A stretch of DNA of 19,614 nt from Microcoleaceae cyanobacterium (lineage in GTDB: Bacteria > Cyanobacteriota > Cyanobacteriia > Cyanobacteriales > Microcoleaceae), in assembly GCA_051652765.1 (NCBI GenBank), contig JBOFUV010000094.1, forward strand, positions 1 to 19,614, given 5' to 3'. The notes below the pieces were generated by a model. That model was not told where the DNA came from. It saw only the letters and a list, made by a program, of their open reading frames with translations, and did not search any database. The position numbers and the translations under genes were made by a program. Below are positions 2-13,845 of this stretch, piece by piece. Each line of letters begins with the position of its first letter. Position 1 is the stretch's first letter.

Positions 2-157
2 TGTCATGGATTCAGCTTTTTCTCTGAAGAAATCAAGCCTCTTTAAGTTTTCAGCTCTGAGCTTTTTGCTTTTACCCGCCAAAGATCCGCCAATAGCAAT
101 GAGCATCCAGGCCAATTCACGCTTTCTCTCTTCATCCAAATCAACAAATTTACTCAT
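2..157 (-). CDS. Hypothetical protein, partial (runs off left edge; MSKFVDLDEERKRELAWMLIAIGG...)
   Basis: ATG at 157 overlaps the end of 150..338 (ATGAGTAA coupling). The frame is open to the window edge. Not in the ORF track because it is truncated. Confidence 0.55.
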   Translation of the reverse strand, partial: MSKFVDLDEERKRELAWMLIAIGGSLAGKSKKLRAENLKRLDFFREKAESMT

Positions 158-338
158 CGGTTTCCTCTTCTTCTATTACCTTGAGATCAAACTCAAACCT
201 TGCCTCTTTAATCCCACCAGTAAGAATATTCTCGATCATCTCAGCAATTCCATCCGCAAGCTCTCTTATAGTGTGACTACCTTTAATTGGAGCAAATTCT
301 TTAATCAAAGCTCCAGACCTGATAACTATTTTTGACAT
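150..338 (-). CDS. Small hypothetical phage-like protein
   Basis: 62 aa ORF overlapping its neighbours at both ends in a co-oriented minus-strand operon. Confidence 0.6.
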   Translation of the reverse strand: MSKIVIRSGALIKEFAPIKGSHTIRELADGIAEMIENILTGGIKEARFEFDLKVIEEEETDE

Positions 339-580
339 CCTCTAATCCTCTTCATTTGCTTAACAACTTTCAATCCAAATTCCATGCCCTGAGCCCTTTC
401 AGGGCTACAGCGCTTTCTTGAAGTGTATCCAATCAAAGCATTCCAGAATCCAGTTGTCCATTGATGATGGTCTGCTAGTGAGTTCCTAACTGGATTAATT
501 GCCCAAATGAAGCAATAGAATTCATGATTGTCATAACCCGTCAAAGTTGGCTGATCGCCCTTGATTTTTTTCCTAGCCAT
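326..580 (-). CDS. Hypothetical protein (likely start MARKK at 580 rather than 652)
   Basis: The ORF track gives 326..652, but a terminator-like hairpin occupies 614-636, so the downstream ATG at 580 is more plausible. Confidence 0.55.
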   Translation of the reverse strand: MARKKIKGDQPTLTGYDNHEFYCFIWAINPVRNSLADHHQWTTGFWNALIGYTSRKRCSPERAQGMEFGLKVVKQMKRIRGCQK

Positions 581-599
581 AAACTGCAAACTACTTTTT

Positions 600-636
600 A
601 AAAAAACTACAAGGCCCTCCCACCGGGTGAGAGGGC
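600..636 (-). terminator. Putative rho-independent terminator
   Basis: Hairpin GCCCTC-C-CACC-G-GGTG-A-GAGGGC (614-636) just after the stop of 645..1049, followed on the minus strand by a T-run a few bases downstream. Confidence 0.5.
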
Positions 637-644
637 TGTTGAAA

Positions 645-1049
645 TTAGGCAACTATTGCCAGTGGCATCTCATAGCTTTTAAGCAAACATGAACTGCCGT
701 GAGCAGTAGTAAAGTAATGATTGAGTTCTTCCCAGTCTGAATACTCCTGAGCTTCCATACCATCCCACTCACGACGGTAGAGAAATAACAGCAGGCCGTT
801 AATGTGCTTTTTCAGGGAGTGATTATAGCCTTGGCACAAAACCACCTCAGGCTGATAGCCAAGCTTAGCAACCAGATTAACTGCATCAGTCAGCGATAAG
901 TTGTCCAGGTGATTGATCAAGACGTAGAGGCTAACCTCTCCCTGACTCATGGGCATTAGGTCGTTATGAATCGTTATCGTCATCGTTGATCCGTTCAATG
1001 CATTCATGTCTGTTAGTTTCCTCGTTAAATCGAATAGCGTTTCCTTCAC
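645..1049 (-). CDS. Hypothetical protein
   Basis: 134 aa ORF with GTG start (true start could be an internal Met), co-oriented in the leftward operon. Confidence 0.6.
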   Translation of the reverse strand: MKETLFDLTRKLTDMNALNGSTMTITIHNDLMPMSQGEVSLYVLINHLDNLSLTDAVNLVAKLGYQPEVVLCQGYNHSLKKHINGLLLFLYRREWDGMEAQEYSDWEELNHYFTTAHGSSCLLKSYEMPLAIVA

Positions 1050-1203
1050 GGGACTTGCAGTCCTCTAGCAAAATATTGTGCCCGATCGTGTTGAGCCTTT
1101 CGTCATATTCTTTGACTTTTCGGTATGGGCCAAACTGATCCTCTTCAATTTTCTTGTTGCTCATCAAACAAATTTCCTCATTATGATTTGTGAACGTCAA
1201 CAA
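964..1203 (-). CDS. Small hypothetical protein (start uncertain)
   Basis: Charged 79 aa ORF in the leftward operon; overlaps 645..1049 by 86 bp. Confidence 0.4.
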   Translation of the reverse strand: MLTFTNHNEEICLMSNKKIEEDQFGPYRKVKEYDERLNTIGHNILLEDCKSREGNAIRFNEETNRHECIERINDDDNDS

Positions 1204-1242
1204 CCAGGAACCAGCTTTTAGCTTGCAGCTCCTGGCGCTGAC

Positions 1243-1461
1243 CTATGGCGATCGCCGTTTCCGAGACTCAGCCTTCAACACCTCAGCAGCTAGGGTTTTA
1301 ATCTTAAAAGTCATTTCCCGGCCCCTTGCTTTGAGATCAAACTTGTACCCGCACTTGGGACAATTCGTCAAATTGATGACCATTTCCATTCGACAATTTG
1401 GAACCGGACATTGTTTGAAAACCTGTCCGAATGGACGTACTCGTCTCTTCATAGCGATCAA
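1243..1461 (-). CDS. Small zinc-ribbon protein
   Basis: Two Cys pairs (CPVPNC...CPKCG) and a basic composition. Confidence 0.55.
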   Translation of the reverse strand: MIAMKRRVRPFGQVFKQCPVPNCRMEMVINLTNCPKCGYKFDLKARGREMTFKIKTLAAEVLKAESRKRRSP

Positions 1462-1615
1462 TCATCTCCTCAATTTCAGATGGTGTGTACTCAAACAAAC
1501 GGAACCAAATTAAGGCATATTGCCTGACTTCCTCCTCAGTAAGCTGATAATGGTTGACAATGTTGACGGATAGTTCACCTGACGCTAGACTTAGTTCCAT
1601 GCTTCTTACCTGCAA
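1337..1615 (-). CDS. Small hypothetical protein
   Basis: 92 aa ORF with an amphipathic helical middle (LTEEEVRQYALIWFRLFEYTPSEIEEMI); overlaps 1243..1461. Confidence 0.45.
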   Translation of the reverse strand: MQVRSMELSLASGELSVNIVNHYQLTEEEVRQYALIWFRLFEYTPSEIEEMIDRYEETSTSIRTGFQTMSGSKLSNGNGHQFDELSQVRVQV

Positions 1616-2019: not shown

Positions 2020-2379
2020 GTGATAGAAGATGAACGAAAAGAAACGAGGGCCAAAGCCAAAAGGGAAAGTCCTTTTCAACCTGAGTCTGGAACCGGAAGC
2101 GAAACAAGCTCTGATAGAGAAAGCTCAGGCAGTGGGGAAAAAGCCATCCGACTTGGTAAACGAGTTCGCCAAATCCGGGTTGCAATCTATGGAATTGGAG
2201 CATTTACTGGGGGAATCATTGAGCAAACGCTTGAGCAGCTTAAAGAGCGTTTGCGAGAATACGACGACTGCATCGTCTGGTACGTGCAGGCCAAGCAAAA
2301 AGCACTAAAACAAATAGAAGCTATGGAGAAGCTTCAGACTGAGTTTGCCGAGAAAATGAGCCAATTTGAAGAAGAATAA
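2020..2379 (+). CDS. Coiled-coil protein overlapping the RHH gene in another frame (start uncertain)
   Basis: The C-terminal half is heptad-like (GGIIEQTLEQLKERLREYDDCIVWYVQAKQKALKQIEAMEKLQ). The stop is followed 10 bp later by a terminator hairpin. Confidence 0.5.
   Translation: MIEDERKETRAKAKRESPFQPESGTGSETSSDRESSGSGEKAIRLGKRVRQIRVAIYGIGAFTGGIIEQTLEQLKERLREYDDCIVWYVQAKQKALKQIEAMEKLQTEFAEKMSQFEEE
2030..2308 (+). CDS. Putative ribbon-helix-helix (CopG/Arc-like) repressor
   Basis: Basic N-terminus, alternating strand VLFNLSL, then two helices (EPEAKQALIEKAQAVG-KKPSDLVNEFAKSG); immediately downstream of the operator array. Confidence 0.6.
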   Translation: MNEKKRGPKPKGKVLFNLSLEPEAKQALIEKAQAVGKKPSDLVNEFAKSGLQSMELEHLLGESLSKRLSSLKSVCENTTTASSGTCRPSKKH

Positions 2380-2636: not shown

Positions 2637-3155
2637 ATGCTTACCACCCCCCCTGCAATCACTAGAGAGTGGGATGAGCCAATCATCATTAAGGCATTGG
2701 AAGAGAATCCCGGCCTCACTCACGAGCAACTCTTAAAGCTCCTCAACCAGGATCGCCCCTCCCCCATTTCCGCCGATCAACTCAGAAGATTTATCTCTCA
2801 ACTCGAAAACGAAGGGAAGGTTGGGCTGTGTCAAACAATTCGTCCCCCAAAAAAAGAAGCACCGAATCAAAGTTTTGGAGGACGAATTAATTTAAGAGTC
2901 CATTGGGCCAAGGCAGGCGGCAAGGCCAAGGGGGATCATAAATATCCCTGGCTGTATGAGGGTAGCAAACCAATTAAATATATCGGAGGTGGAAACGAAA
3001 AAAGTGCGATCGCCCAGGCGCGATCCGAGCTGATCGAAAATTGGATCGTTCAGGGCCTCGGCAAAGATGAGATTATTGCCCTCATTCCTCGTCTTCAAAG
3101 CCAGCTGAAAAAGATGAAGAAGAAGTCTAGGGCTGCGAAAAAGCTCAAAGAATAA
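2637..3155 (+). CDS. Putative DNA-binding protein with N-terminal winged-HTH-like domain
   Basis: IIKALEENPGLTHEQLLKLL...ISADQLRRFISQLENEGKV fits a wHTH pattern; Lys-rich C-terminus. Confidence 0.55.
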   Translation: MLTTPPAITREWDEPIIIKALEENPGLTHEQLLKLLNQDRPSPISADQLRRFISQLENEGKVGLCQTIRPPKKEAPNQSFGGRINLRVHWAKAGGKAKGDHKYPWLYEGSKPIKYIGGGNEKSAIAQARSELIENWIVQGLGKDEIIALIPRLQSQLKKMKKKSRAAKKLKE

Positions 3156-3328: not shown

Positions 3329-3904
3329 TTGACAGGCAGAAACCAACAATTACGGCCAAGGGGTGAATACCTGACTCCGCAAGAGATTGAGCGATTACTA
3401 GCGGCTGCCCGCGGCTCCTCAAATCCAGTTCGGGATCAGGCGCTAATCCTGATCGCATTTCGGCATGGTCTTAGACTTAGGGAGGCAGTGGATGAATCTG
3501 GGTTGAGATGGGGACAGATCGATCTCCCATCTGCCCAGCTCCACTGCACCAACCGTCTGAAACACGGGAAAAATAGCGTTCACCCCCTGGCGTTGGATGA
3601 GATGAAATTGTTAAAAAAGCTCAGGCGCGATCGCCCCTGCGATCTCCCGTGGGTGTTTGTCAGCCGGAATTCCCTTCCTCTCTCAGGCAAACAGGCTAAT
3701 CGCATTGTTTCCGGCGCTGGAGAAGCTGCCGGATTTGATTTCCCAATCCATTTCCACATGCTGCGTCATAGCTGCGGTTACGCCCTGGCGAACAAGGGCT
3801 ATGACACTCGCCTGATCCAAGACTGGCTAGGTCACAAAAACATCAAGCACACAGTCATCTATACCGAACTCTCGCCTGAGAGGTTAGCCGGGGTGAGGTT
3901 CTGA
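3329..3904 (+). CDS. Tyrosine recombinase, FimB/FimE-like (catalytic domain only)
   Basis: EYLTPQEIERLL, RD.ALILIAFRHGLR, LKHG, HMLRHSCGYALAN, DTRLIQDWLGHKNIKHTVIY give the R-K-H-x-x-R-H-Y catalytic set. 191 aa, with no N-terminal arm- or core-binding domain. Confidence 0.92.
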   Translation: MTGRNQQLRPRGEYLTPQEIERLLAAARGSSNPVRDQALILIAFRHGLRLREAVDESGLRWGQIDLPSAQLHCTNRLKHGKNSVHPLALDEMKLLKKLRRDRPCDLPWVFVSRNSLPLSGKQANRIVSGAGEAAGFDFPIHFHMLRHSCGYALANKGYDTRLIQDWLGHKNIKHTVIYTELSPERLAGVRF

Positions 3905-4170
3905 TGTGGAAGAATTACGTTGCCATCGGATTTGCAATTCCATCTGGAGCAATATCCGCATTAAAGCTGTTCCCTGTATTTTTTGAGGATAGGGATGAAT
4001 TCATCCAGGCGATCACCTACACCCTGATACCGGACTGGTATTCGCTTTTGCGGGGGCAGCTCTGGCGGGATTGGGAAAAGTCCTGGAAGTTGGGGTTATA
4101 CCTGATTGGGATAAATGGGGTGGCGCTGGCTGTCTGGCTTTTGGTTGGGTGGCTGATCAAGGATGTGTAG
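3904..4170 (+). CDS. Small membrane protein (two hydrophobic segments)
   Basis: TGATG stop/start coupling with the recombinase; hydrophobic N- and C-terminal stretches. Confidence 0.6.
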   Translation: MWKNYVAIGFAIPSGAISALKLFPVFFEDRDEFIQAITYTLIPDWYSLLRGQLWRDWEKSWKLGLYLIGINGVALAVWLLVGWLIKDV

Positions 4171-4217: not shown

Positions 4218-5246
4218 TCAAGCATATCTAATTGTCTTACTCACTGGATCTTTATAAAGTTGCCCAGGATTGAGACCCGTAGCAGAGGTAGGAAGATTGA
4301 AGAATTGAATATTCTGGGCTGCTACATTGAAACTCATTACATTTGTCGTATTGTGACTGGCAGCTTGAAATATGTAATTCCCACCACCGTTCCCTTGTCC
4401 AAACTCATAAATTACCTGCTTTCCAGATCCCGAGTTGTTGGTTCCAAAATACCCCCAGCGAAAAAAAACATCTTTCATTTGGACATTTGGAATGTCTGTC
4501 CAGATCAAGGCATAATTTGCATCCGAGCTTCCGATGATCGATCCTCCCCCGGGAAGGTTGACGCTATTTGTGAAAATTTTCCCATCTCCCATTCCAATCC
4601 CCGGCAAAAGAAAAGCCCCAGTTGTACTAGAAGTTGCCTGAGTTGTGTTTGTCAAAGAAAGTTCGGGAGAGGTTATCAACCCGGTAAAAGTGGGACTAGC
4701 CAAAGGAGCCTTGTTAGCAAGGCTCGCAGTCAATCCTATGATCTGAGAGATTGACAGCGCAGAGATTCTCTCTGCATCAAGAGTCCCTGTGGTGATCGCT
4801 GCAGCGTCATGCCCATGGGCCTCCGGGGTGAAAACCTTTGGTTTCCCGGTAACAGCAGTCCAATCATGTCCATGCGCTGCCGGAAGAAAAGTCGTTGGTT
4901 TCCCGGTAACAGCAGTCCAATCATGCCCATGCGCTGCCGGAAGAAAAGTCGTTGGTTTCCCGGTAACAGCAGTCCAATCATGCCCATGCGCTGCCGGGGC
5001 GAAAGTCGTTGGTTTCCCGGTGAGGGAGTCCCAGGTGTGATCATGCGCTGCCGGGGCGAAAGTCGTTGGTTTCCCGGTGAGGGAGTCCCAGGTGTGATCA
5101 TGCGCTGCCGGAGCGAAAGTCGTTGGTTTCCCGGTGAGGGAGTCCCAGGTGTGATCATGCGCTGCCGGAGCGAAAGTCGTTGGCTTCCCAGTGATGGAAT
5201 CCCAGTTAAGATATTGTTCAGGAAAGAATCCAGTAACTATCGGCAT
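4218..5246 (-). CDS. Phage fibre / spike-like protein with HxH repeats
   Basis: Seven W-x-x-[ILV]-TGKP...AH-x-H repeats, then ITTGTLDAERI and IIGLTASLANKAPLASPTFTG, motifs typical of phage tail fibres; beta-rich C-terminus. Confidence 0.8.
   Translation of the reverse strand: MPIVTGFFPEQYLNWDSITGKPTTFAPAAHDHTWDSLTGKPTTFAPAAHDHTWDSLTGKPTTFAPAAHDHTWDSLTGKPTTFAPAAHGHDWTAVTGKPTTFLPAAHGHDWTAVTGKPTTFLPAAHGHDWTAVTGKPKVFTPEAHGHDAAAITTGTLDAERISALSISQIIGLTASLANKAPLASPTFTGLITSPELSLTNTTQATSSTTGAFLLPGIGMGDGKIFTNSVNLPGGGSIIGSSDANYALIWTDIPNVQMKDVFFRWGYFGTNNSGSGKQVIYEFGQGNGGGNYIFQAASHNTTNVMSFNVAAQNIQFFNLPTSATGLNPGQLYKDPVSKTIRYA
4806..5204 (-). repeat. Coding tandem repeat, 7 x 57 bp (19 aa)
   Basis: Four WDS[IL]TGKPTTFAPAAH units and three WTAVTGKP units; near-identical at DNA level within each subtype. 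Confidence 0.95.
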
Positions 5247-5766
5247 GTTATTTAATCCAGGAACAGGCGGTTCAATTACATCAGACGAGCTGGAAGGGCA
5301 GTTTTACACCCTTGTATCAAAATGCCAAAGGCTCGAACTCCAACCAGCCATCAACCCCAAAAACGTGAACATCATCAATTTTACGATTCGAGATGATGGC
5401 ATCTGTTCGGGTAGCGCTAATATTCCCGCCTTGATTGTAAATGAAGGTGGCAAAACCATTATCGATTATCCAGATCCGTTCGTTGCTGCTGGATGGGTTG
5501 AAGGATCTGGCGGGGATGGACAGGCCCTCAATTATGCCCATGCCTTAGCTCAACGCGCTGAGCTTCTTGCTCGAGCTGAAAGAAATCCCATAACAAATCC
5601 TCAAGCCGTAACAAATCGGTTCGGCGAATTTTCTTGGACAGTTGAGGCTTTCTTGTCAGCTCCAGTCACTCACAACGGTATCCTTAATTTTAGTTTTGCC
5701 GTTCCCACAGAGGTGACAAATTCTGGAGATGGAGAAACCCGCAAAGGGGCTATCTATCTTCCTTAA
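5245..5766 (+). CDS. Putative virion protein made of two tandem copies of the ~80-aa domain encoded at 11200..11442
   Basis: Start MLFNPGTGG at ATG 5245 preferred over 5191. Visible similarity to the 80-aa ORF (LE.Q, NP.N, DG..S.S..IP, GK). Confidence 0.65.
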   Translation: MLFNPGTGGSITSDELEGQFYTLVSKCQRLELQPAINPKNVNIINFTIRDDGICSGSANIPALIVNEGGKTIIDYPDPFVAAGWVEGSGGDGQALNYAHALAQRAELLARAERNPITNPQAVTNRFGEFSWTVEAFLSAPVTHNGILNFSFAVPTEVTNSGDGETRKGAIYLP

Positions 5767-5776
5767 TCGCTAATCT

Positions 5777-6730
5777 TTAGAAACCCGATAAGGTAAACGT
5801 TCCCCCGGTGTAGGGGTCAACATTTGCCACATAGGATTTAATGATTGCTGTATCGTATTGGCCTGTGGATGTAGATTTGGCAACAAACCGCCCGAACAGA
5901 TTTAAAAAATTTGGGTGAAGCTTTATCTTCCCAGCGCTGACCATTCCCTCATACCCGTCTTTCGTGAATTCTCCCACGATGGAGCGCTGGATGTTGTTGT
6001 CTTCCGGGTTGATGATGTCACTAGCAACCGTAGCTACAAATTTGAGAATCCTTGGTAACGAGATCCACTGAAAATTCAGAGGGGCAGTCAGGTCATAAGC
6101 AGATCCCTCGACTGTGACGGAAAATTCATATTCTGTTTTCGGAGCAAAGCTAGTGAGGAATACAGCTTTCCATCCTGTTAATCCCTGTTCTGAGTCCAAA
6201 AAGGTAGTCATGTTGTCAACAAAAGCAGAGGTTGAGTTGTCGTAGTAAGGGGCTAGAAAATCATCCCGATTAGCTCCAGTCCCGATCAATAGTTGCAGTC
6301 CTAGTGGGGTAGGCATCTCATCAAGTCCTATTTCAAAGTTAATCGTAAAGTTCGATCTGACGATAACATCAACCGTAGCCCCGATCTCTCCCTGAATATA
6401 AACCGTCTGTTTATTGAATTGCTCCTTTAAGCTTGCTCCTGGCATTAGGGTGATGGGAACAGTGGAATTTCCCACAAAAATTAGTAGGGGCTGATCGGTG
6501 GTATTCGTAATCCAGATTTCCCTTGCGTAGGTTTTGTCAGTGATCGCCTCTCCAGGGGGAATAACTATCTGTTTAGTGCCGTCTAAGGTGATGGTTCCTC
6601 CTTTGATTTTGTCCAAGTCAGGAGTGCCGATAATCCCTTCAAAATTAAGGTTGCCCAATTTGTCAAGGATTTGCAATAAAATATCCTCACAAGGGCAGTC
6701 ACCCCCATTGCTCCCAATAAATTTAAACAT
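5777..6730 (-). CDS. Putative structural protein (beta-rich)
   Basis: 317 aa ORF filling the space between plus-strand genes; contains IWITNTTDQPLLIFVG...LMPGASL. Confidence 0.65.
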   Translation of the reverse strand: MFKFIGSNGGDCPCEDILLQILDKLGNLNFEGIIGTPDLDKIKGGTITLDGTKQIVIPPGEAITDKTYAREIWITNTTDQPLLIFVGNSTVPITLMPGASLKEQFNKQTVYIQGEIGATVDVIVRSNFTINFEIGLDEMPTPLGLQLLIGTGANRDDFLAPYYDNSTSAFVDNMTTFLDSEQGLTGWKAVFLTSFAPKTEYEFSVTVEGSAYDLTAPLNFQWISLPRILKFVATVASDIINPEDNNIQRSIVGEFTKDGYEGMVSAGKIKLHPNFLNLFGRFVAKSTSTGQYDTAIIKSYVANVDPYTGGTFTLSGF

Positions 6731-6736
6731 AATAAA

Positions 6737-7648
6737 ATGCTTTTAAGTTATCCCCAGAATTATAAAGAAGTCATTCAATCTACTGGTCTATTAAGTCCAG
6801 TGGATTTAACAAAACCACCTGGAAAAAACATAGAAATAGCCAATTGGAATAGCTTGATAAACGCTCAATTGACTAAATTTACCCCTATTGACGATATCAA
6901 AATCTTGGGGGTAAAGGTGAAGATCGAAACCCTATTAGCTACCTATCGGCTATCAAGCTTGAAGGTATGTCAGCCTAGGGATTGGGACAGCGATTTATTG
7001 TCTCCAGAGCAAAACAGCTTCAAAGAAGCCACGTACAGGGCAAATTATCCCATAGGGGAAGGGTACGCAGTTAGAATGATTGCCTATCAGAGAGTTGCAA
7101 GTGGCGACCTTCAACAGATAGGGTCAATGGATTTGTACAATGAGAAGATGGAAAATCACAGAAACTTGATGATCCTTCTAAGTGATGGACAAGTAGGCTT
7201 ACAAGCGTACGATTCTTCTCTCTGGTTCTCTCTAGGGAATTGGCCGCCAAATTTTCTGGGAGACGAAAATAACTATTTAATTATCAAGGGATCATACTCG
7301 TATACCGCTGAAGTATCTGTCGAAAAAAAATATAAATTCACGTCTGAAGCCAGACAGCATGAAGTAAGCAAGCAGTACCAAACCAACATCATGTATAGGA
7401 GTGACAATAGGGTAGCTTTCCTGATAACAAATAACAGTGACTACCCTGTTTACTTTGGCTACGATCCATTTGTTACCGCCCAGTCAGGCATAGAAATCAA
7501 GCCAAGAGAGCGGTTTCTTAGTTCGCAGAGCTTGGATGACTTTTTGGCAACTGTTCCTTATGCTCTATTCGATTCTATTTATGTAGTTGGATCTAGAGAT
7601 CAAACCCAAAAAATTACTACCCTTGACTGGCGAATCCCTAACCAGTGA
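6737..7648 (+). CDS. Putative structural protein with C-terminal beta-sandwich-like domain
   Basis: 303 aa ORF; the C-terminal RVAFLITNNSDYPVYFGY...GIEIKP resembles the motif in 5777..6730. Confidence 0.65.
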   Translation: MLLSYPQNYKEVIQSTGLLSPVDLTKPPGKNIEIANWNSLINAQLTKFTPIDDIKILGVKVKIETLLATYRLSSLKVCQPRDWDSDLLSPEQNSFKEATYRANYPIGEGYAVRMIAYQRVASGDLQQIGSMDLYNEKMENHRNLMILLSDGQVGLQAYDSSLWFSLGNWPPNFLGDENNYLIIKGSYSYTAEVSVEKKYKFTSEARQHEVSKQYQTNIMYRSDNRVAFLITNNSDYPVYFGYDPFVTAQSGIEIKPRERFLSSQSLDDFLATVPYALFDSIYVVGSRDQTQKITTLDWRIPNQ

Positions 7649-7663
7649 ATTAAAAATTAAATT

Positions 7664-9493
7664 ATGTCGCCCGAACAAGCTGAACTACTGGATGAATTAG
7701 ACTTTTCTGAAAGCGGGATTGCTGAAAGAGAAGGAATTAGCCGTCAGGAAGTAAGGGAATTAAGGGAGGCAGCCAAAGACACAGAAACAGGTGGGATTTC
7801 AGGCAAGATTAAATTTAAACCTTTGAAATTAGGGGTTACTTTAAATCCTAAAGGGGAGATTGGTTTCAGTGTTGGGGCTATGTCTGTTTCCTCTCGTTTA
7901 ATTGGCTGTTTTTGGGTCACATCCTACTCCATAGCTGGAATTGAGGTTTATTCAAACATCGCGCGCTCTGGTCTCCCTGGATGTGAAGAACCTCCACCGC
8001 CGCCAGATCCCAAAAAACCCCCAAGGCCGAAAGAGCCAACCTGGAAAGACGATTATTCTCCAGGTGATCCTAGGGACATGATTCAAGTCTGCTTGGATTA
8101 TCAATACTTCATAAGTATGAATCCCAAGGTCATTCCTTCATACGAATGGACACCTATTATTTTTGAAAAATTTGATTTAGCCACGGCAGCCTTCAGGATG
8201 GAGAGAACAACTAGAGGTAGAGATGTTTTATGTCTGGTTGAACAAACAACTAACAGGACTCGGTATGAATCCTGTTATAACTATCGCGGGGGATTGGGCT
8301 ATTACAATATTGTTTATGACCTAGCACTAGGAGAAAGATTCATTATCAGTCCTAGCAGTTCGGCTCTATATGGATTCAGTCAACCGACAAGACCAGGGCG
8401 ATATACCATTGACTTACTCGGAACTAAGTATCAGTTGATATACGACCCAATCGGGTTAAGAGGTACAAGGGGATGGGTTAATCAAATGATTCCAACTATT
8501 TCACGAACTATCAAAAGAGATATTGCAGCAGAATACTATAACTATAATGTCACCCGATCTGATGTTGCTACGCAGATAGTCGATGAATGGGTATTTGAAA
8601 AATTTCCTTCTACCGGAGTAGCTCCGGCATACACAGCAAAGAGGCCCGAAAAAATGGATTGTTGTGATTTAGTTCGAAAAATGTATAAGAGAATAGGGTG
8701 TGATTTGTATCCTGGCAAAATGCCCATCAGTCTGACTGGTGGAGCAGACGGGAAGTTGAATCCGAATGATCAGATTGAAATCACGAACCTTACAGGTCTA
8801 CTCCTTCACGTCTTTAAGCTAGATGACGAACGTTGGGGACAATTCCCCATAGATATCCAAATTGAAGATTCAGATCAAACCCAGGAAGGCAGCCAAACCT
8901 ATGAAATTAGACTTCCTAATGCCGCTGAAGCCTTAGCTGAAATCTATGGATTGCTCATGAATATGCAATCTGATTCAGATGTTAATCAAAGTTATGCAGC
9001 CCGCACTCTGGCTGAGGTTGGACTAACCCGGATCGCCGCCCGTCAAGCCTACGAGGCCATCCGACAAGTTATAGAATATCTAGGGTTTGACTATCAAAAA
9101 ATTGAATCCAGTATGAAATTTACATTCACACCTGGAGCTGAAGAAGTTGACCAGGTGCTGAAGGAGTCAACCCAGTCTTATCAGTCGATTAAAATTGCAG
9201 ATGAGGAAAAGTCTCTGAAAGAAGTTCTGGCAGATTTACTAAATGCCGCCGCCATTATCAGAGCAACCCAATTCCGCAAAGTTAATCCCAAAGGAGACAT
9301 GAAACAGCAAATCCTTAATAATCTGCGCCGGGGGGTTGACATGTACCAAAAGCTTGAAAACCTCAAGACAGATGGAAAGTTAGGCTGGAAAGAGTTTGTG
9401 GACAAAACTCAGGACAACTGGACGACCGACACTGACAAATCTAACAACCCCATCATTCAAGACTACAAAGCCCCTCCTGCAACCAAAACATGA
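7664..9493 (+). CDS. Large hypothetical, putative virion protein with Pro-rich linker
   Basis: 609 aa ORF with an EEPPPPPDPKKPPRPKEP linker and helical C-terminal half; ATGA overlap with the next gene. Confidence 0.75.
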   Translation: MSPEQAELLDELDFSESGIAEREGISRQEVRELREAAKDTETGGISGKIKFKPLKLGVTLNPKGEIGFSVGAMSVSSRLIGCFWVTSYSIAGIEVYSNIARSGLPGCEEPPPPPDPKKPPRPKEPTWKDDYSPGDPRDMIQVCLDYQYFISMNPKVIPSYEWTPIIFEKFDLATAAFRMERTTRGRDVLCLVEQTTNRTRYESCYNYRGGLGYYNIVYDLALGERFIISPSSSALYGFSQPTRPGRYTIDLLGTKYQLIYDPIGLRGTRGWVNQMIPTISRTIKRDIAAEYYNYNVTRSDVATQIVDEWVFEKFPSTGVAPAYTAKRPEKMDCCDLVRKMYKRIGCDLYPGKMPISLTGGADGKLNPNDQIEITNLTGLLLHVFKLDDERWGQFPIDIQIEDSDQTQEGSQTYEIRLPNAAEALAEIYGLLMNMQSDSDVNQSYAARTLAEVGLTRIAARQAYEAIRQVIEYLGFDYQKIESSMKFTFTPGAEEVDQVLKESTQSYQSIKIADEEKSLKEVLADLLNAAAIIRATQFRKVNPKGDMKQQILNNLRRGVDMYQKLENLKTDGKLGWKEFVDKTQDNWTTDTDKSNNPIIQDYKAPPATKT

Positions 9494-11076
9494 CCTTTGC
9501 AGTAGCCGCAAAACTCCTTAGCTCTCGCGTTGTTCGTGCGACTGTCACGGGCAACGCTCGGGGTGTCAGGCAGTTACAGAGATCAACCGGGGGAAAGCTG
9601 GCTCAGGGGGGCAAAAGCGGGGGAATCTTCAAGGGATTAGGCAACTTCATTTCTAGAGTTCTCAAACAGGTAGCTGGAGGGATAAGCTGGTCATTCACAA
9701 CTCTGTGGAACTGGATCTCTGGAGCAGTCTCTGCACTTTGGAATTTCAATTGGGATATCTCAGACACAACAATTGATACCCAAATCCAAGCCATGTGGAC
9801 TTCAGTCGGAGGAGCATTGGGAGGTCTGGCAGGGCAGCTTGTAGGTTGGACAGTTTGTGGGTTTGTTCCGGCTGCTGCTATCTTCACCTTCAATGAAGCA
9901 ATCGGTATCCACCTCTTGAAAGAACTGGGAGAGGAAGCTGTAGACGAACTTGCTGGAGCTGCTGCCAATGTTATTCAAATCTCAGCCCGAACTCTCATCC
10001 AGGCATCCCTGCTTTGGACTTACAAAAATGTTCGTAGGGCCCTAAAAAATCCCAATAACGTCGTAGGCCGTTCTCTGCGAAAGTTTTTTGGGGATGAAAA
10101 AATGAGCCAATGGGGTGACGAAGACCAACAAGACTGGAGCTTCTCCCGCAAACTCCAAAACCGCATTGAAAGTATTAAATCAGAGTGGTGGCAGGAATTC
10201 TTTGAGGAATTTTTTGATGAAGCCTTTGACGCTTGCAACGAAGCAGGCTACGCCCTGGCGGGAGGAATGGACTCTTGGTACGCCCAACAAGCCGAACTCA
10301 AAGCGTCAGGGCTACTAGGGGCAGAACGAACCATTGAAGTATACCCCAACAGAGGCGACAAGTCCGAGCGCTTGGTCTTGCACGGCCCCGAAAAGCTGCT
10401 ACGGGGGGCAGTCAGCCAAACTTTAGCGAATGCCCAGCTCCTAAATAATCGGGATATTGGGTTGTACTCGTTCCTGACTCCTGAATGGATGGCGGCTCAG
10501 GATGACGATCTAAAGGTCATCATTGAGTTTTATAGCGTTCAAGGAAAAGGGAGTCTGACAGCTCAGGCTAGAAAAACGGCTACTCGTTCCTATATCACTA
10601 TTCCCAATGTCAGCAGGTCTAAGTGTTCTTGGTCTGACATCAAGCTAGCCGCTGGAGGTTCTAACGGATTTCTTTGGGGGCCTTGGAGTTGCACCGCTCA
10701 CCTTAAAGGGGGAAGAAATATTAGAGTTAATGCCGGGACAGAGAAGGAAGGGGAACAACTTCTGACTCAACTATCGCTACTCTCTGAGAATGAAATTGAC
10801 TGGGAAAGAGATCCGCCCATCACCCTTAACAAGAAAGGAGGAACTGAGCGCTCTACCCGATCTAAGCAACAAAAAACAGTCAAGGTTTACCCTTGGGCAT
10901 TCGTTCTGCTCAACACCAAAAAGCTGAGGAAATACCAAGAACGCAAGCTATTGGGAGCATTGCCCCCAAATACTTTAGACCCGGCGCTGGAAAAAGTGAG
11001 AATTCATTTATACGATGATATGGAACCCGCTAAGGCTAAAAATCAGATAGCCCAGGTTCTAAGAAATACACTCTAA
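9490..11076 (+). CDS. Large hypothetical, putative membrane-interacting virion protein
   Basis: 528 aa ORF with Gly/Trp-rich amphipathic and hydrophobic N-terminal third (GGALGGLAGQLVGWTVCGFVPAAAIF) and a basic C-terminus. Confidence 0.75.
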   Translation: MTFAVAAKLLSSRVVRATVTGNARGVRQLQRSTGGKLAQGGKSGGIFKGLGNFISRVLKQVAGGISWSFTTLWNWISGAVSALWNFNWDISDTTIDTQIQAMWTSVGGALGGLAGQLVGWTVCGFVPAAAIFTFNEAIGIHLLKELGEEAVDELAGAAANVIQISARTLIQASLLWTYKNVRRALKNPNNVVGRSLRKFFGDEKMSQWGDEDQQDWSFSRKLQNRIESIKSEWWQEFFEEFFDEAFDACNEAGYALAGGMDSWYAQQAELKASGLLGAERTIEVYPNRGDKSERLVLHGPEKLLRGAVSQTLANAQLLNNRDIGLYSFLTPEWMAAQDDDLKVIIEFYSVQGKGSLTAQARKTATRSYITIPNVSRSKCSWSDIKLAAGGSNGFLWGPWSCTAHLKGGRNIRVNAGTEKEGEQLLTQLSLLSENEIDWERDPPITLNKKGGTERSTRSKQQKTVKVYPWAFVLLNTKKLRKYQERKLLGALPPNTLDPALEKVRIHLYDDMEPAKAKNQIAQVLRNTL

Positions 11077-11090
11077 CGAAAAAGATATTC

Positions 11091-11123
11091 GTTTCATTGT
11101 CATCCTAAGGGTGACAATGAAAC
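11091..11123. other. Strong intergenic inverted repeat (15-bp stem, 3-nt loop)
   Basis: GTTTCATTGTCATCC-TAA-GGGTGACAATGAAAC, with one G-T pair. Confidence 0.8.
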
Positions 11124-11199
11124 ACATCGCCTCAAACCCCTTTACAGTAACAATCTCAGGCGCTATGTTGAATTCATCAACCTTACAGAGGAATTCCTC

Positions 11200-11442
11200 A
11201 TGGCAGCCGTAATTACAACAACCGCCTTGACCCTTGAAGAGCAACTACTAGAAGTCTTATTTAAGCTCTATTACTTGCAATCTGGCAGCAACGCTGCAAC
11301 CACAAACCCTGACAACCGCACACTAATCACAAACATCTCAATCGGCGCTGACGGAACTATTTCGTTTTCCGGCAGTATCCCAACCACAGTTACCGCCCCA
11401 GCCGGAAAGCCAAACTACGACCCCGTAGAAATCTTCCCTTAG
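11200..11442 (+). CDS. 80-aa protein, candidate major virion/coat subunit
   Basis: GAGG Shine-Dalgarno upstream, preceded by the largest intergenic gap in the structural module, and has a tandem-duplicated paralogue at 5245..5766. Function is inferred. Confidence 0.65.
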   Translation: MAAVITTTALTLEEQLLEVLFKLYYLQSGSNAATTNPDNRTLITNISIGADGTISFSGSIPTTVTAPAGKPNYDPVEIFP

Positions 11443-11506
11443 GGCTAGGCAGAGACCTTAAATTTTTCTTTCAGACCTCACTACTCACTTAGGACTATGA
11501 AACCTT

Positions 11507-12055
11507 ATGTCTGGATTAACCAAGGCATCAATCAAAGCGTCGCTTGATGCCTACCGAAAAAAAGTTGCGACTGAATTTGGGGCAACCAAAAACGCCCCTG
11601 GCGGCGTGATGATGACTGCCCTGGTAGACAGTAATACCAAGGTGAACCTGTACGTCCCTGGTAGGATCATCATGCATTTCAATATTGCCGATAGCGCAAT
11701 TGCAGATAACGTCGGTTACTACAAACCAAAAATTTTGGCAGCAAGCACGGTCAAAAACCGAGGGCTACCAGCAGGAGCTGCTAAGGAAGATAAGAGCATG
11801 ATTGGGGAAATAATTAAAATCCCTCTCTCAACTCCCTACACCAAGTCGGTCAAAGGCAAAAACCGCCTGATTTCCAACACCACCATGCGGTTTAATGCGC
11901 TAATGAACCTAAAGTGTATTGCTTGGTGGCTCTACAATCACTGTGGAACCAAACCAGGGCAGGGATGGACGTACCGGGGGTTCTTCTTCCCAGTCTCTAA
12001 TATTCCCACTGCTCAATTGGGTGATATATTCCAAAACAAACCTACTACGCCTTAA
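11507..12055 (+). CDS. Basic hypothetical protein (possible nucleic-acid-binding virion protein)
   Basis: 182 aa, Lys-rich; AGGA upstream; co-oriented in the late operon. Confidence 0.65.
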   Translation: MSGLTKASIKASLDAYRKKVATEFGATKNAPGGVMMTALVDSNTKVNLYVPGRIIMHFNIADSAIADNVGYYKPKILAASTVKNRGLPAGAAKEDKSMIGEIIKIPLSTPYTKSVKGKNRLISNTTMRFNALMNLKCIAWWLYNHCGTKPGQGWTYRGFFFPVSNIPTAQLGDIFQNKPTTP

Positions 12056-12060
12056 TCGTC

Positions 12061-12420
12061 ATGAGCTTGGCTGATGAAACTCGTTGGTCAGTTTTTTACG
12101 AAACCGGGAACATCACTCAACCTCAGGGGAAAATATTGCCAATCCAAGTATTTTCCCCTTTAACATCTAAAGTCATCAGGGTTACCGCTCACTCAGTCAT
12201 AGTCCGCCCGGAATGGTACACAGCAGGCTACCTGTCACACCGACTCACGCCAGCTCCTGTTGAAGCCCCCAATGTTGCCGTTCAGGTTCAGAGTGACAGA
12301 ATCGCTCTGAATGTAAAGCAGATTCTATTTCTCGAAAATGTAGAGGAAAAAGCCTATCTAGTATTCTTCCCTGTTAAGTGGTTAACCAGTCTCAGTTTGG
12401 CGATTGAGCAGTACCAATAA
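12061..12420 (+). CDS. Small beta-rich hypothetical (putative structural) protein
   Basis: 119 aa with alternating hydrophobic strands, e.g. KVIRVTAH, WYTAGYL, AYLVFFPVKWL. Confidence 0.65.
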   Translation: MSLADETRWSVFYETGNITQPQGKILPIQVFSPLTSKVIRVTAHSVIVRPEWYTAGYLSHRLTPAPVEAPNVAVQVQSDRIALNVKQILFLENVEEKAYLVFFPVKWLTSLSLAIEQYQ

Positions 12421-12464
12421 AAATCAATAAATTTCAAGCTGATTGAACTTTAGATCCTTGAATC

Positions 12465-12827
12465 ATGGATGCTTTAGCCCAAGTTGAATTGATGAATAAT
12501 TCTGGCTATTTTAGTCTCGAATTTGGCTTGTTCCTAAGGAAATTGTGCGCGATCCTCTATGCGATTCAAATCGTTGAGGCAATTCTTTTGGCTTACTTCC
12601 TTTGGGCGAACAAGCGACGATCTGCCTATCGCTCTATCGCTTTATTTATGTTGTTGCAGGCAATCGGAAATCTTTACCTCGTCTATTTGCTTGTTGACTA
12701 TTCCCCAGTGAGACTTGTGAAATTTGCGTTCCTGCCCTTGGCGATCGCCGTCCTATTGGCGGATATCACCGGGGGCTTTGTTATTTTGATGATTCGAAGA
12801 GAGTCCCGTTTAGCGAGGAAAGCATGA
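12465..12827 (+). CDS. Holin-like membrane protein (three hydrophobic segments)
   Basis: Three hydrophobic stretches and a basic C-tail (RRESRLARKA); lies upstream of the peptidase. Confidence 0.55.
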   Translation: MDALAQVELMNNSGYFSLEFGLFLRKLCAILYAIQIVEAILLAYFLWANKRRSAYRSIALFMLLQAIGNLYLVYLLVDYSPVRLVKFAFLPLAIAVLLADITGGFVILMIRRESRLARKA

Positions 12828-13183
12828 TCCTGCTAGATGTTCAACCAGTGCCCCAGCAGCAATTTGATTCAGACTACTTTCAGTTTCTGGCACTGCTAGC
12901 AACTTCAATCACGACACTGGTTGGGACAGGGCTAACGATTTGGGCTGGAATCATTAACAGAAAACAAGAGAAGGCGGTTCAGAATGTTGAATCCATTGCC
13001 CAGGAGCGTGAGCGACTAGAGAAAGCTGCTCATATCTATCGCAATGCTCTAACCCTCATTAGAGGAAATCTCAGCACTATTTCCTACTACCAAGGGGATG
13101 ACAGCAAGGAGATCAAGATTCTAAGAACTATAGACGAGACCATTCATCAAGCTCTACTCAAGGGCGATCAATTTATTGATTAG
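12824..13183 (+). CDS. Single-TM plus coiled-coil protein (lysis-cassette accessory)
   Basis: FLALLATSITTLVGTGLTIWAGII followed by a charged helical region; ATGA-coupled to the previous gene. Confidence 0.55.
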   Translation: MILLDVQPVPQQQFDSDYFQFLALLATSITTLVGTGLTIWAGIINRKQEKAVQNVESIAQERERLEKAAHIYRNALTLIRGNLSTISYYQGDDSKEIKILRTIDETIHQALLKGDQFID

Positions 13184-13196
13184 TTTATGAAAAAAT

Positions 13197-13766
13197 ATGA
13201 AAAAAATTGACTTACAGGGTAAAGAAGTTGGCTTTTACCTATCCGTTCCTTTCTATAGTCAGCGAGATAATGCGATTCAGTGGTGGCGAACCTGCAATAC
13301 GTCGAGCTGCGCCATGGTTGCCGAATACCTAAAGCCGGGATGCATCGACAATTCAGATGATGAATATTTCAGACTAGTGAAACAGTACGGTGATACCACA
13401 GATCACCAAGCTCACACAGCCGCATTGAACGAAATAGGCATCAAATCAAGCTTCTGGACAAACCTAGATTATCAAGACTTGGACAAGCAACTGGAAAAGG
13501 GTCATCCAGTTGTAATTGGAGTGGCGCATCGAGGAGCCGTTGAAGCCCCTCAGGGAGGGCACATGATTGTGGTTATAGGGAAATATAAGAAGTTGGGGAC
13601 AGAGAAAATAGGATACATCTGCCATGACCCTTGGGGGGAAGGTTTTGGCGCTCATTACAACCTAGGACTTTCAGGAGAACGGGTGACCTATCCCAAATCA
13701 AGCCTTGACAACCGATGGCTTTGTGAAGGGAACGGATCTGGATGGGGAAGAATTTTCGAGGCATAA
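13197..13766 (+). CDS. Peptidase C39-like (papain-fold) protein, putative endolysin
   Basis: VPFYSQRDN...RTCNTSSCAM (Cys), GGHMIVVIG (His), HDPWG (Asp). Confidence 0.8.
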   Translation: MKKIDLQGKEVGFYLSVPFYSQRDNAIQWWRTCNTSSCAMVAEYLKPGCIDNSDDEYFRLVKQYGDTTDHQAHTAALNEIGIKSSFWTNLDYQDLDKQLEKGHPVVIGVAHRGAVEAPQGGHMIVVIGKYKKLGTEKIGYICHDPWGEGFGAHYNLGLSGERVTYPKSSLDNRWLCEGNGSGWGRIFEA

Positions 13767-13845
13767 TGCTTTTTTGCCTACAAGAAAAACTGTGGGGATT
13801 CTGCTAATGTAACTTACACAGAGTGATGTCTGCCGAAGGACTCTT

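Follow-up and report, generated by a model that had tools for sequence, protein, structure and literature searches.

Bacterial DNA viruses are sorted into few capsid lineages, and tailless jelly-roll viruses of the Varidnaviria type that lack an ATPase, such as FLiP, are known. According to the available portions of three reports, several described systems come close to the locus studied here. The 'novel phage-like sequences' reported in 2010 from Arthrospira platensis NIES-39 measure 12.5-25.5 kb, occur in at least 18 copies per genome and carry small conserved unknown genes (PMC2853384). The filamentous phages Zuza8, Zuza27 and phiOH16 of Thermus and Nf of Neisseria have an IS110-family gene at the end of the provirus, which is thought to integrate and excise them (PMC11437467). 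In IS110 bridge recombinases of the IS621 type, an RNA lies upstream of the recombinase, its target and donor guides each include the core, and this short core is repeated at both ends of the element (bioRxiv 2024.01.24.577089).

The window, that is the whole stretch of 19,614 nucleotides analysed here, carries all but the left end of an element which, judged by its sequence, is a complete, small, virus-like provirus of about 15.7 kb. We consider it probable that this is a complete temperate virus from a large cyanobacterial lineage, with a non-tailed particle built of proteins of no described capsid class. The NIES-39 sequences resemble it in size, copy number and small conserved genes, and another A. 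platensis genome gave six matches to its protein E, the most conserved marker of the element group; by this analogy they likely belong to the same family, which in the available portion of PMC2853384 is not analysed at the level of genes or virions. The filamentous phages share the terminal IS110-family gene with the provirus, but they are inoviruses that leave the cell without lysis, whereas the provirus has a lysis cassette, lacks a Zot/pI ATPase and encodes no small membrane coat protein among its core genes; it also has a bridge-type RNA, while a guide RNA is unmentioned in the available portion of PMC11437467.

With the tailless jelly-roll viruses the provirus shares genome size, a probable temperate tailless lifestyle, lysis genes and putative variable spikes, but sequence matches are lacking and the models of its proteins G and E are not jelly-rolls. 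It is like the Caudoviricetes in its fibre repeat and its holin and endolysin layout, and in the integrases and primase-helicases of relatives, and unlike them in that no terminase, portal or HK97 capsid turned up in the element, elsewhere in the genome or in the whole-contig relatives. The position of the RNA, the core-containing guides and the repeated short core are shared with IS621, from which the provirus differs in a core of 3 nt where IS621 has 2, a right donor guide with a bulged base, an RNA whose 5' end bears a motif that we take to be hammerhead-like, a cargo comprising a whole provirus of 15-19 kb, and Pfam scores under the family cut-off.

Borders and probable RNA-guided integration

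On the right, the element ends at a 3-nt att core (13799..13801), followed by host DNA and the gene of a CCA-adding enzyme. The left end is outside the window, on contig C84, which is joined to the window by a 99-nt overlap, and the left att core at C84 2022-2024 agrees with the guide match. The initial annotation had considered the module bounded on both sides; this holds for the right side, with lysis genes, att core and host DNA, but not for the left, where the border is on C84. Of 20 loci from a search of relatives, 16 had the host gene that flanks C84 next to the CCA gene, and an unoccupied insertion site was present in relatives. Contig C92 had been considered as the left flank and was rejected (its flanking gene adjoined the CCA gene in 0 of 20 loci), and a 5-nt core first guessed from the contig overlap was superseded by the 3-nt core that the guides support.

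Retrieval of the left flank, as initially proposed, thus yielded attL and an IS110-like recombinase. Together with a bridge-type RNA, the recombinase is all that C84 adds to the provirus; no terminase, portal or Rep gene was found on this part. The recombinase gene (C84 523-1959) is at the element terminus and the RNA (C84 about 190-500) is upstream of it. With regard to the DEDD RuvC-like and Tnp domains of bridge recombinases, the protein matches PF01548 with E 0.004, and a recombinase copy on C92 matches PF01548 with E 4.6e-6 and PF02371 with E 1.1e-4, all below the family cut-off, and residues D, E, D, D and S are conserved in the recombinase alignment.

The RNA guides match both element ends and the insertion site, core included, and the match shifts with the insertion site in all six elements tested, which represent five distinct RNAs. 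In each of the six, three guide arms of 8 nt, which follow one another along the RNA as left target, right target and left donor, match with 0-1 mismatches, and 0 of 300 shuffles performed equally well; non-cognate guides gave exact matches of at most 6 nt. The element end pattern was not found at locus L132, and Rfam gave no match at E 0.01 for the RNA in 5 loci. These data suggest that the window copy appears to insert by means of an RNA-guided recombinase. The integrase is thus probably the IS110-like protein with its bridge-type RNA, and not the FimB-like gene at 3329 which had been seen as the recombinase of the element. Such elements would be natural cases in which bridge-RNA recombinases shift a cargo of 15-19 kb to different sites via altered guides.

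Early and regulatory genes

The left part of the window begins with seven small leftward early ORFs (2..1615, minus strand), the first of which continues into C84; none has a family match. On the plus strand, a small ORF of the regulatory region (2020..2379) is common to 6 loci and overlaps a 92-aa ORF (2030-2308) with a weak RelB-like match. It is followed by a gene for a basic protein (2637..3155, plus), found in 11 loci, which has a weak winged-HTH signal and is a candidate late activator or replication initiator. The FimB/FimE-like tyrosine recombinase (3329..3904, plus) consists of the catalytic domain only (PF00589, E 6.5e-39; PRK09870, E 7.7e-44, under that model's cut-off) and is probably a resolvase rather than an integrase. 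The adjacent 88-aa membrane protein (3904..4170, plus; hydropathy 2.22) was seen in no other locus. No replication gene is recognisable in the window copy, which may replicate via host enzymes and one small early protein.

Virus hallmarks

The claim that recognisable hallmarks of tailed phages are missing was borne out, since there are no confident head or tail matches except for the accessory fibre repeat. In the genome, which is 99.97% complete, PF03237 and PF03354 (terminase; positive controls detected), PF04860 (portal) and PF05065 (HK97 capsid) each gave 0 matches. The att-bounded element gave no terminase match either, PHROGs revealed no portal, and HK97 was not listed in fold searches of the E and G models. 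No head, portal or terminase protein was found among the 48 proteins of two whole-contig relatives (L123 and L124), and terminase and portal genes are absent both to the left of the window and elsewhere in the genome. Fibre repeats typical of tailed phages, weak tape-measure matches of E and a window copy without replication gene could also point to a satellite that depends on a helper, or to a tailed prophage whose decay has spared just the tail-tip and lysis genes. We regard this as quite improbable, because terminase, portal and HK97 capsid were not found in so complete a genome, dozens of genomes share the gene set, dN/dS is low, closed circles carry the set, and the E model fits no tail part specifically.

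The traits of inoviruses were not found either. There is no Zot/pI ATPase in the element (the sole Zot match in the genome, E 2.1e-4, is within a 1102-aa frame on a different contig), hydropathy shows in F, G and H none of the transmembrane stretches that a small one-helix membrane coat protein would have, and an endolysin is present where release without lysis would be expected. An FtsK/HerA packaging ATPase is absent from the element; an accessory P-loop ATPase, which may or may not be its counterpart, is encoded at 9 of 45 loci, on both PLSDB circles and in L123.

Distribution among cyanobacteria

Homologous loci are abundant among cyanobacteria, as a check for syntenic clusters had been meant to reveal: of 401 genomes sampled from the phylum, 27 have the gene set, which is present also at 55 further cyanobacterial loci, as well as on two closed circles of 20.8 kb and one circular contig of 18.4 kb. 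The elements measure 15-21 kb. Their conserved core consists of D, E and the genes in the G and H slots, with C and F in most, while modules for replication, integration, fibre and lysis are exchangeable between relatives, in some of which primase-helicases and integrases occur. Median dN/dS values are 0.08-0.20. Integration sites are varied, several divergent copies occur per genome and att sites are intact.

Two members were deposited as plasmids and no relative was found in the viral contig collections, as would be expected of an integrative plasmid or of a host-domesticated particle that does not package its own DNA. Lysis cassettes and fibres are hard to explain in a plasmid, however, and varied sites, multiple divergent copies and intact att sites argue against domestication, so that we find such an origin very improbable. 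Pattern scans of IMG/VR, which detect close relatives only, and GenBank phages gave no relative, and 61 CRISPR spacers, partly redundant and extracted with a simple finder, gave only matches of 16-17 nt.

Overall, a small virus of unusual architecture, as originally suggested, is supported by the lack of head and tail matches and of terminase or portal genes on the left, by the abundant synteny and by the existence of circular forms, and we infer the terms 'tailless' and 'virion' from sequence. That particles package the element's own genome is suggested, indirectly, by circles, lysis genes, fibres and low dN/dS. If this is true, a marker-free lineage with hundreds of divergent members escapes current virus finders and may define a new virion architecture, and the estimate of lysogeny frequency in freshwater, soil and filamentous cyanobacteria would be revised. 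The proposal is directly testable, as cultured strains carry elements, some of them with closed circles; besides the strain of the window, PCC 7601, PCC 7113 and NIES-515 are cultured carriers.

Candidate structural genes and lysis genes

All parts listed initially for 4218..13766 were found, that is the fibre, eight ORFs, two membrane proteins and a C39 peptidase. The module does not form one operon: the minus strand encodes the fibre and B, which face A and C, respectively, head to head. The start codons of fibre and A overlap, and 6 nt separate those of B and C. An identical strand layout is seen in the copy on contig C87. Phase-variable inversion by the FimB-like recombinase was rejected as the source of the mixed strands, since inverted repeats at the switches are at most 9 nt, C87 and C116 keep the layout, and in 18 of 41 loci G and D lie on opposite strands.

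The fibre-like protein (4218..5246, minus) has six 19-residue repeats encoded by six 57-nt repeats and matches PHROG minor tail and fibre families with E 5.8e-30, in line with its initial description; it is a candidate accessory receptor-binding part. The eight ORFs from A to H were rightly called unannotatable, with no Pfam, PHROG or NCBIfam match below E 0.007. A (5245..5766, plus) is acidic and a tandem duplicate of the acidic 80-aa unit F (11200..11442, plus), and B (5777..6730, minus), an acidic protein of 317 aa in 4 loci, may be a minor structural protein. D (7664..9493, plus), with a hypervariable N-terminal half, Pro-rich linkers and a conserved C-terminal half, is a candidate adhesin or spike. 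PDB sequence-profile searches with H, C, G, G1, D and F gave no match under E 0.1.

C (6737..7648, plus) combines an N-terminal domain of some 180 aa, which is conserved, with a variable C-terminal domain and is a candidate vertex or spike, whereas H (12061..12420, plus), a protein of 119 aa, is a candidate shell or vertex protein. As a rather unlikely alternative, the element may be a tailless icosahedral virus whose capsid, formed by H and/or C, is a single or double jelly-roll that has diverged strongly; G would bind DNA internally, and the accessory ATPase would be a packaging motor that some members no longer have. H and C look beta-rich by eye, C measures 255-290 aa in most loci and resembles vertex spikes, which have a conserved base and a variable tip, and a minority of loci, as well as the circles, encode P-loop ATPases. 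Searches of PDB sequences with H and C profiles were empty, however, C is found in only 31 and H in 37 of 45 loci, and the att-bounded window element has no ATPase.

E (9490..11076, plus) is predicted to form a long amphipathic helical hairpin and an alpha/beta C-terminal domain. Its tape-measure match in PHROGs (E 0.0076) is weak and the best among the eight ORFs; in fold searches, the hits of the model were limited to generic helical hairpins (Z at most 8.9, rmsd 3.2, 95 aligned), with the C-terminal domain barely covered, and to a nameless BFVD entry (A0A510E869, E 0.011). We consider E, from its model, a candidate DNA-delivery or membrane-piercing protein. G (11507..12055, plus) is a basic protein of 182 aa with pI 10.0, and median pI is 9.6-9.9 across every sequence family of the G slot. 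Its moderately confident model (mean pLDDT 68; 53 of 182 residues below 50; alignment identity 9-24%) gave no fold match among 48,161 chains (best Z 2.2), and the ESM Atlas returned no usable match for G or E; such searches with models of two of the eight core proteins do not prove a new fold. G is the best candidate for a DNA-binding major coat protein. The G-slot genes form three families (G1, G2 and G3) not joined by HMM or hhalign searches, something one would not expect of a major capsid protein.

It is tempting to speculate, with slightly less than even confidence, that the non-tailed lineage proposed here is a widespread, undescribed class of cyanobacterial DNA viruses with a major coat protein G whose fold belongs to none of the HK97, jelly-roll and inovirus lineages, motorless packaging and lytic exit, in a subgroup of which the integrase is a naturally reprogrammed bridge-RNA recombinase, possibly with a hammerhead-trimmed RNA. 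On the main reading, which we consider probable, the recombinase and its RNA would release the element in circular form and direct it to guide-specified sites, and late genes would be transcribed from both strands. Basic G would condense and coat the DNA, so that a packaging motor would not be needed, and the rest of the shell, or its ends, would consist of H, C and F/A. Host binding may then fall to D and the fibre, E may pierce the envelope and deliver the DNA, and holin-like proteins and endolysin would free the particles by lysis.

The lysis genes also agree with the initial description. The membrane proteins I and J (12465..13183, plus) have maximum 19-residue hydropathies of 2.46 and 1.76, J has a weak Rz-like match (E 0.024), and by position both are candidate holin- or spanin-like proteins. 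K (13197..13766, plus) is a C39-like peptidase (Pfam E 1.9e-11; PHROG endolysin E 2.2e-54) and a predicted endolysin; relatives carry endolysins of several types. A hairpin, seen as a self-inverted match, separates E from the F-G-H block (11091..11123).

Extent and gene content of the element

The element represents a real and complete provirus lineage that is widespread and falls outside the marker sets of tailed phages and inoviruses; it is very probably a virus. The window is one entire contig (C94), and its genome carries three or more elements of this kind. C94 and a second contig, C87, each overlap both C84 and C92 by 99 nt. In 20 loci around the CCA-adding-enzyme gene, obtained from a search of relatives and including this genome's own, that gene is adjoined by the small gene flanking C84 (which we take to be ycf34) in 16 cases and by the C92 flank in none; C84 is therefore the left continuation of C94, and the two together give an element of about 15,720 bp. 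C84 contributes no more than the remainder of a small ORF, about 320 nt of non-coding DNA and, at the end, a 478-aa outward-pointing IS110-like gene. Terminase and portal genes are absent from this left part, and a search of the genome for terminase (two families), for portal and for HK97 capsid proteins gave no matches, with the controls giving signal.

All parts listed earlier, including fibre, recombinase, eight ORFs and endolysin, are present in the sequence. The eight core ORFs (A to H, with starts from 5245 to 12061) were indeed unannotatable, none having a Pfam, PHROG or NCBIfam assignment; these searches did recognise the C39 endolysin, the tyrosine recombinase and the fibre. Two genes are encoded on the minus strand, the fibre at 4218-5246, head to head with A, and B at 5777-6730, head to head with C. 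A local inversion was rejected as the source of this layout, because C87 has the identical arrangement, no flanking inverted repeat exceeds 9 nt, and G and D are on opposite strands in 18 of 41 loci family-wide. At 5244-5247 and 6728-6739 the start codons of divergent genes overlap or are 6 nt apart, which leaves no room for promoters and implies that late transcripts from the two strands are long and overlap. An inverted repeat with palindromic sites (1921-1944 and 1987-2010) between divergent early genes likely represents the operators of a genetic switch.

Probable RNA-guided integration

The IS110-like gene is terminal in eight elements, three in this genome and five in four other genomes, and this genome has no copy of it away from the three element ends. 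The conserved DNA upstream of it has a structure with two internal loops and would encode a bridge-type RNA (about 190-500 of C84, L102:190-500; also in L101, L100, L126 and L129-L132). In six elements with both ends placed, the RNA contains three 8-nt arms in fixed order (left target, right target, left donor), with 0-1 mismatches and with the 3-nt core included in every arm; these ends were picked after the RNA had been seen, with two candidates per far end in L021, L035 and L034, and the six elements represent five distinct RNAs, as L129 and L130 have the same one. For each of the six, none of 300 mononucleotide shuffles was as good as the real RNA, and non-cognate guides matched at most 6 nt exactly. 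The right-donor guide matches over 5 nt and resumes after one bulged base. For L126 a single 8-nt arm was compared, and no element end was located in L132. The guides pair C84 with C94, C92 with C87 and C116 with C19. Overall, these sequence matches make it highly likely that integration is guided by the bridge RNA. The guide layout agrees with that of the bridge RNAs of IS110 recombinases of the IS621 type (bioRxiv 2024.01.24.577089). IS110 genes at provirus ends, as in this element, are also known from filamentous phages of Thermus and Neisseria (PMC11437467).

L129 and L130, from one genome, carry identical RNAs at different insertion sites, the right target guide being exact at one and having one mismatch at the other. 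The 5' part of the RNA resembles a hammerhead ribozyme motif, canonical-looking in L129, L131 and L126 and with a long insertion in this genome's three copies; an Rfam search of five loci gave nothing at E 0.01. Self-cleavage at this motif could set the RNA 5' end.

Spread and gene census

Syntenic relatives, for which a search had been proposed, proved abundant. D matches occur in at least 27 of the 401 genomes sampled from the phylum (20 of 156 genera); the E profile gave 727 clusters at 50% identity and 55 loci, all labelled cyanobacterial, from 93 pattern hits. The gene census covered 45 loci with sufficient flank, after removal of six near-duplicates. D and E, the baits, are present in all 45, and the G and H positions are filled in 41 and 37, making these four near-universal; C was found in 31, and F-like genes and the tyrosine recombinase in 27 each. 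Lysis enzymes and fibres are freely exchanged among members. Median dN/dS was 0.08-0.20 for E, D, C, G, F and H, as estimated from 3-15 non-independent pairs per gene with at least 60% identity, such pairs being absent for B, G3 and H2.

Primase-helicase, DnaB-like and another helicase-like family were each found in 7 of 45 loci and a P-loop ATPase, read as FtsK-like, in 9; 17 lack all four types within the fetched stretch. In some members the P-loop ATPase lies among the early genes and has a hydrophobic N-terminus (L041:13323-14513, L042:16220-17689, L123:1532-2758); it may serve in packaging or cell-to-cell DNA transfer.

The module is also present on two closed 20.8 kb records, which were submitted as plasmids and come from Tolypothrix PCC 7601 and from PCC 7113. 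An 18,455-bp contig is circular, as its 141-nt terminal repeat shows; a terminal repeat of 48 nt is present on a contig of 17,690 bp (coverage 360 according to its record name), and two further contigs and one end pair showed none. No head, portal or terminase PHROG matched any of 48 proteins from the 18,455-bp and 17,690-bp contigs, a set that omits an N-containing ORF and four others of doubtful status.

Several observations count against the preferred reading. The ATPase is present in both deposited circles and L123; no relatives were found in pattern scans of IMG/VR or among GenBank phages; and no replication gene could be recognised in this copy, which may be replication-defective or rely on functions of the host. 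Full-text searches, taking in a minority of subscription papers, revealed at the level of abstracts neither a description of this group nor any provirus whose bridge RNA had been mapped. The novel phage-like sequences that PMC2853384 mentions for Arthrospira, 12.5-25.5 kb in size, probably belong to this family, and provirus catalogues such as that of PMC13626063 may list members. The copies L085 and L086, with identical match scores, share a contig at a distance of about 21.5 kb and are possibly a tandem provirus.

Candidate coat protein

Of the near-universal genes, D is hypervariable and E helical, which leaves G or H as the expected major coat protein. G is our preferred candidate, being basic in a family that lacks a universal motor. 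All proteins in the G position are basic and all F-like proteins acidic. The window's G falls in family G2 by HMM iteration; G1 and G3 occupy the same position, and no sequence link between the families was found. Modelled from 40 sequences (pLDDT 68), G consists of a long beta-hairpin, one helix and short strands, with a best fold-search Z of 2.2 and nothing in Foldseek at E 0.001. A new coat fold for the lineage has, in our judgement, slightly less than an even chance; alternatively, H and C could be jelly-rolls.

The E model (150 sequences, pLDDT 86.7, pTM 0.49) combines long amphipathic helices with an alpha/beta region at the C-terminus, and its fold matches were generic hairpins only. 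Its top viral structural match, BFVD entry A0A510E869 (443 aa, E 0.011), aligns over the whole length, with a low TM-score. Several members (L033, L038, L065 and L099) encode E as two genes, divided at the helical to alpha/beta boundary and sometimes on opposite strands. The G1 protein itself consists of two repeats, and its genes are tandemly duplicated in L060:8000-9368 and L072:2540-3848.
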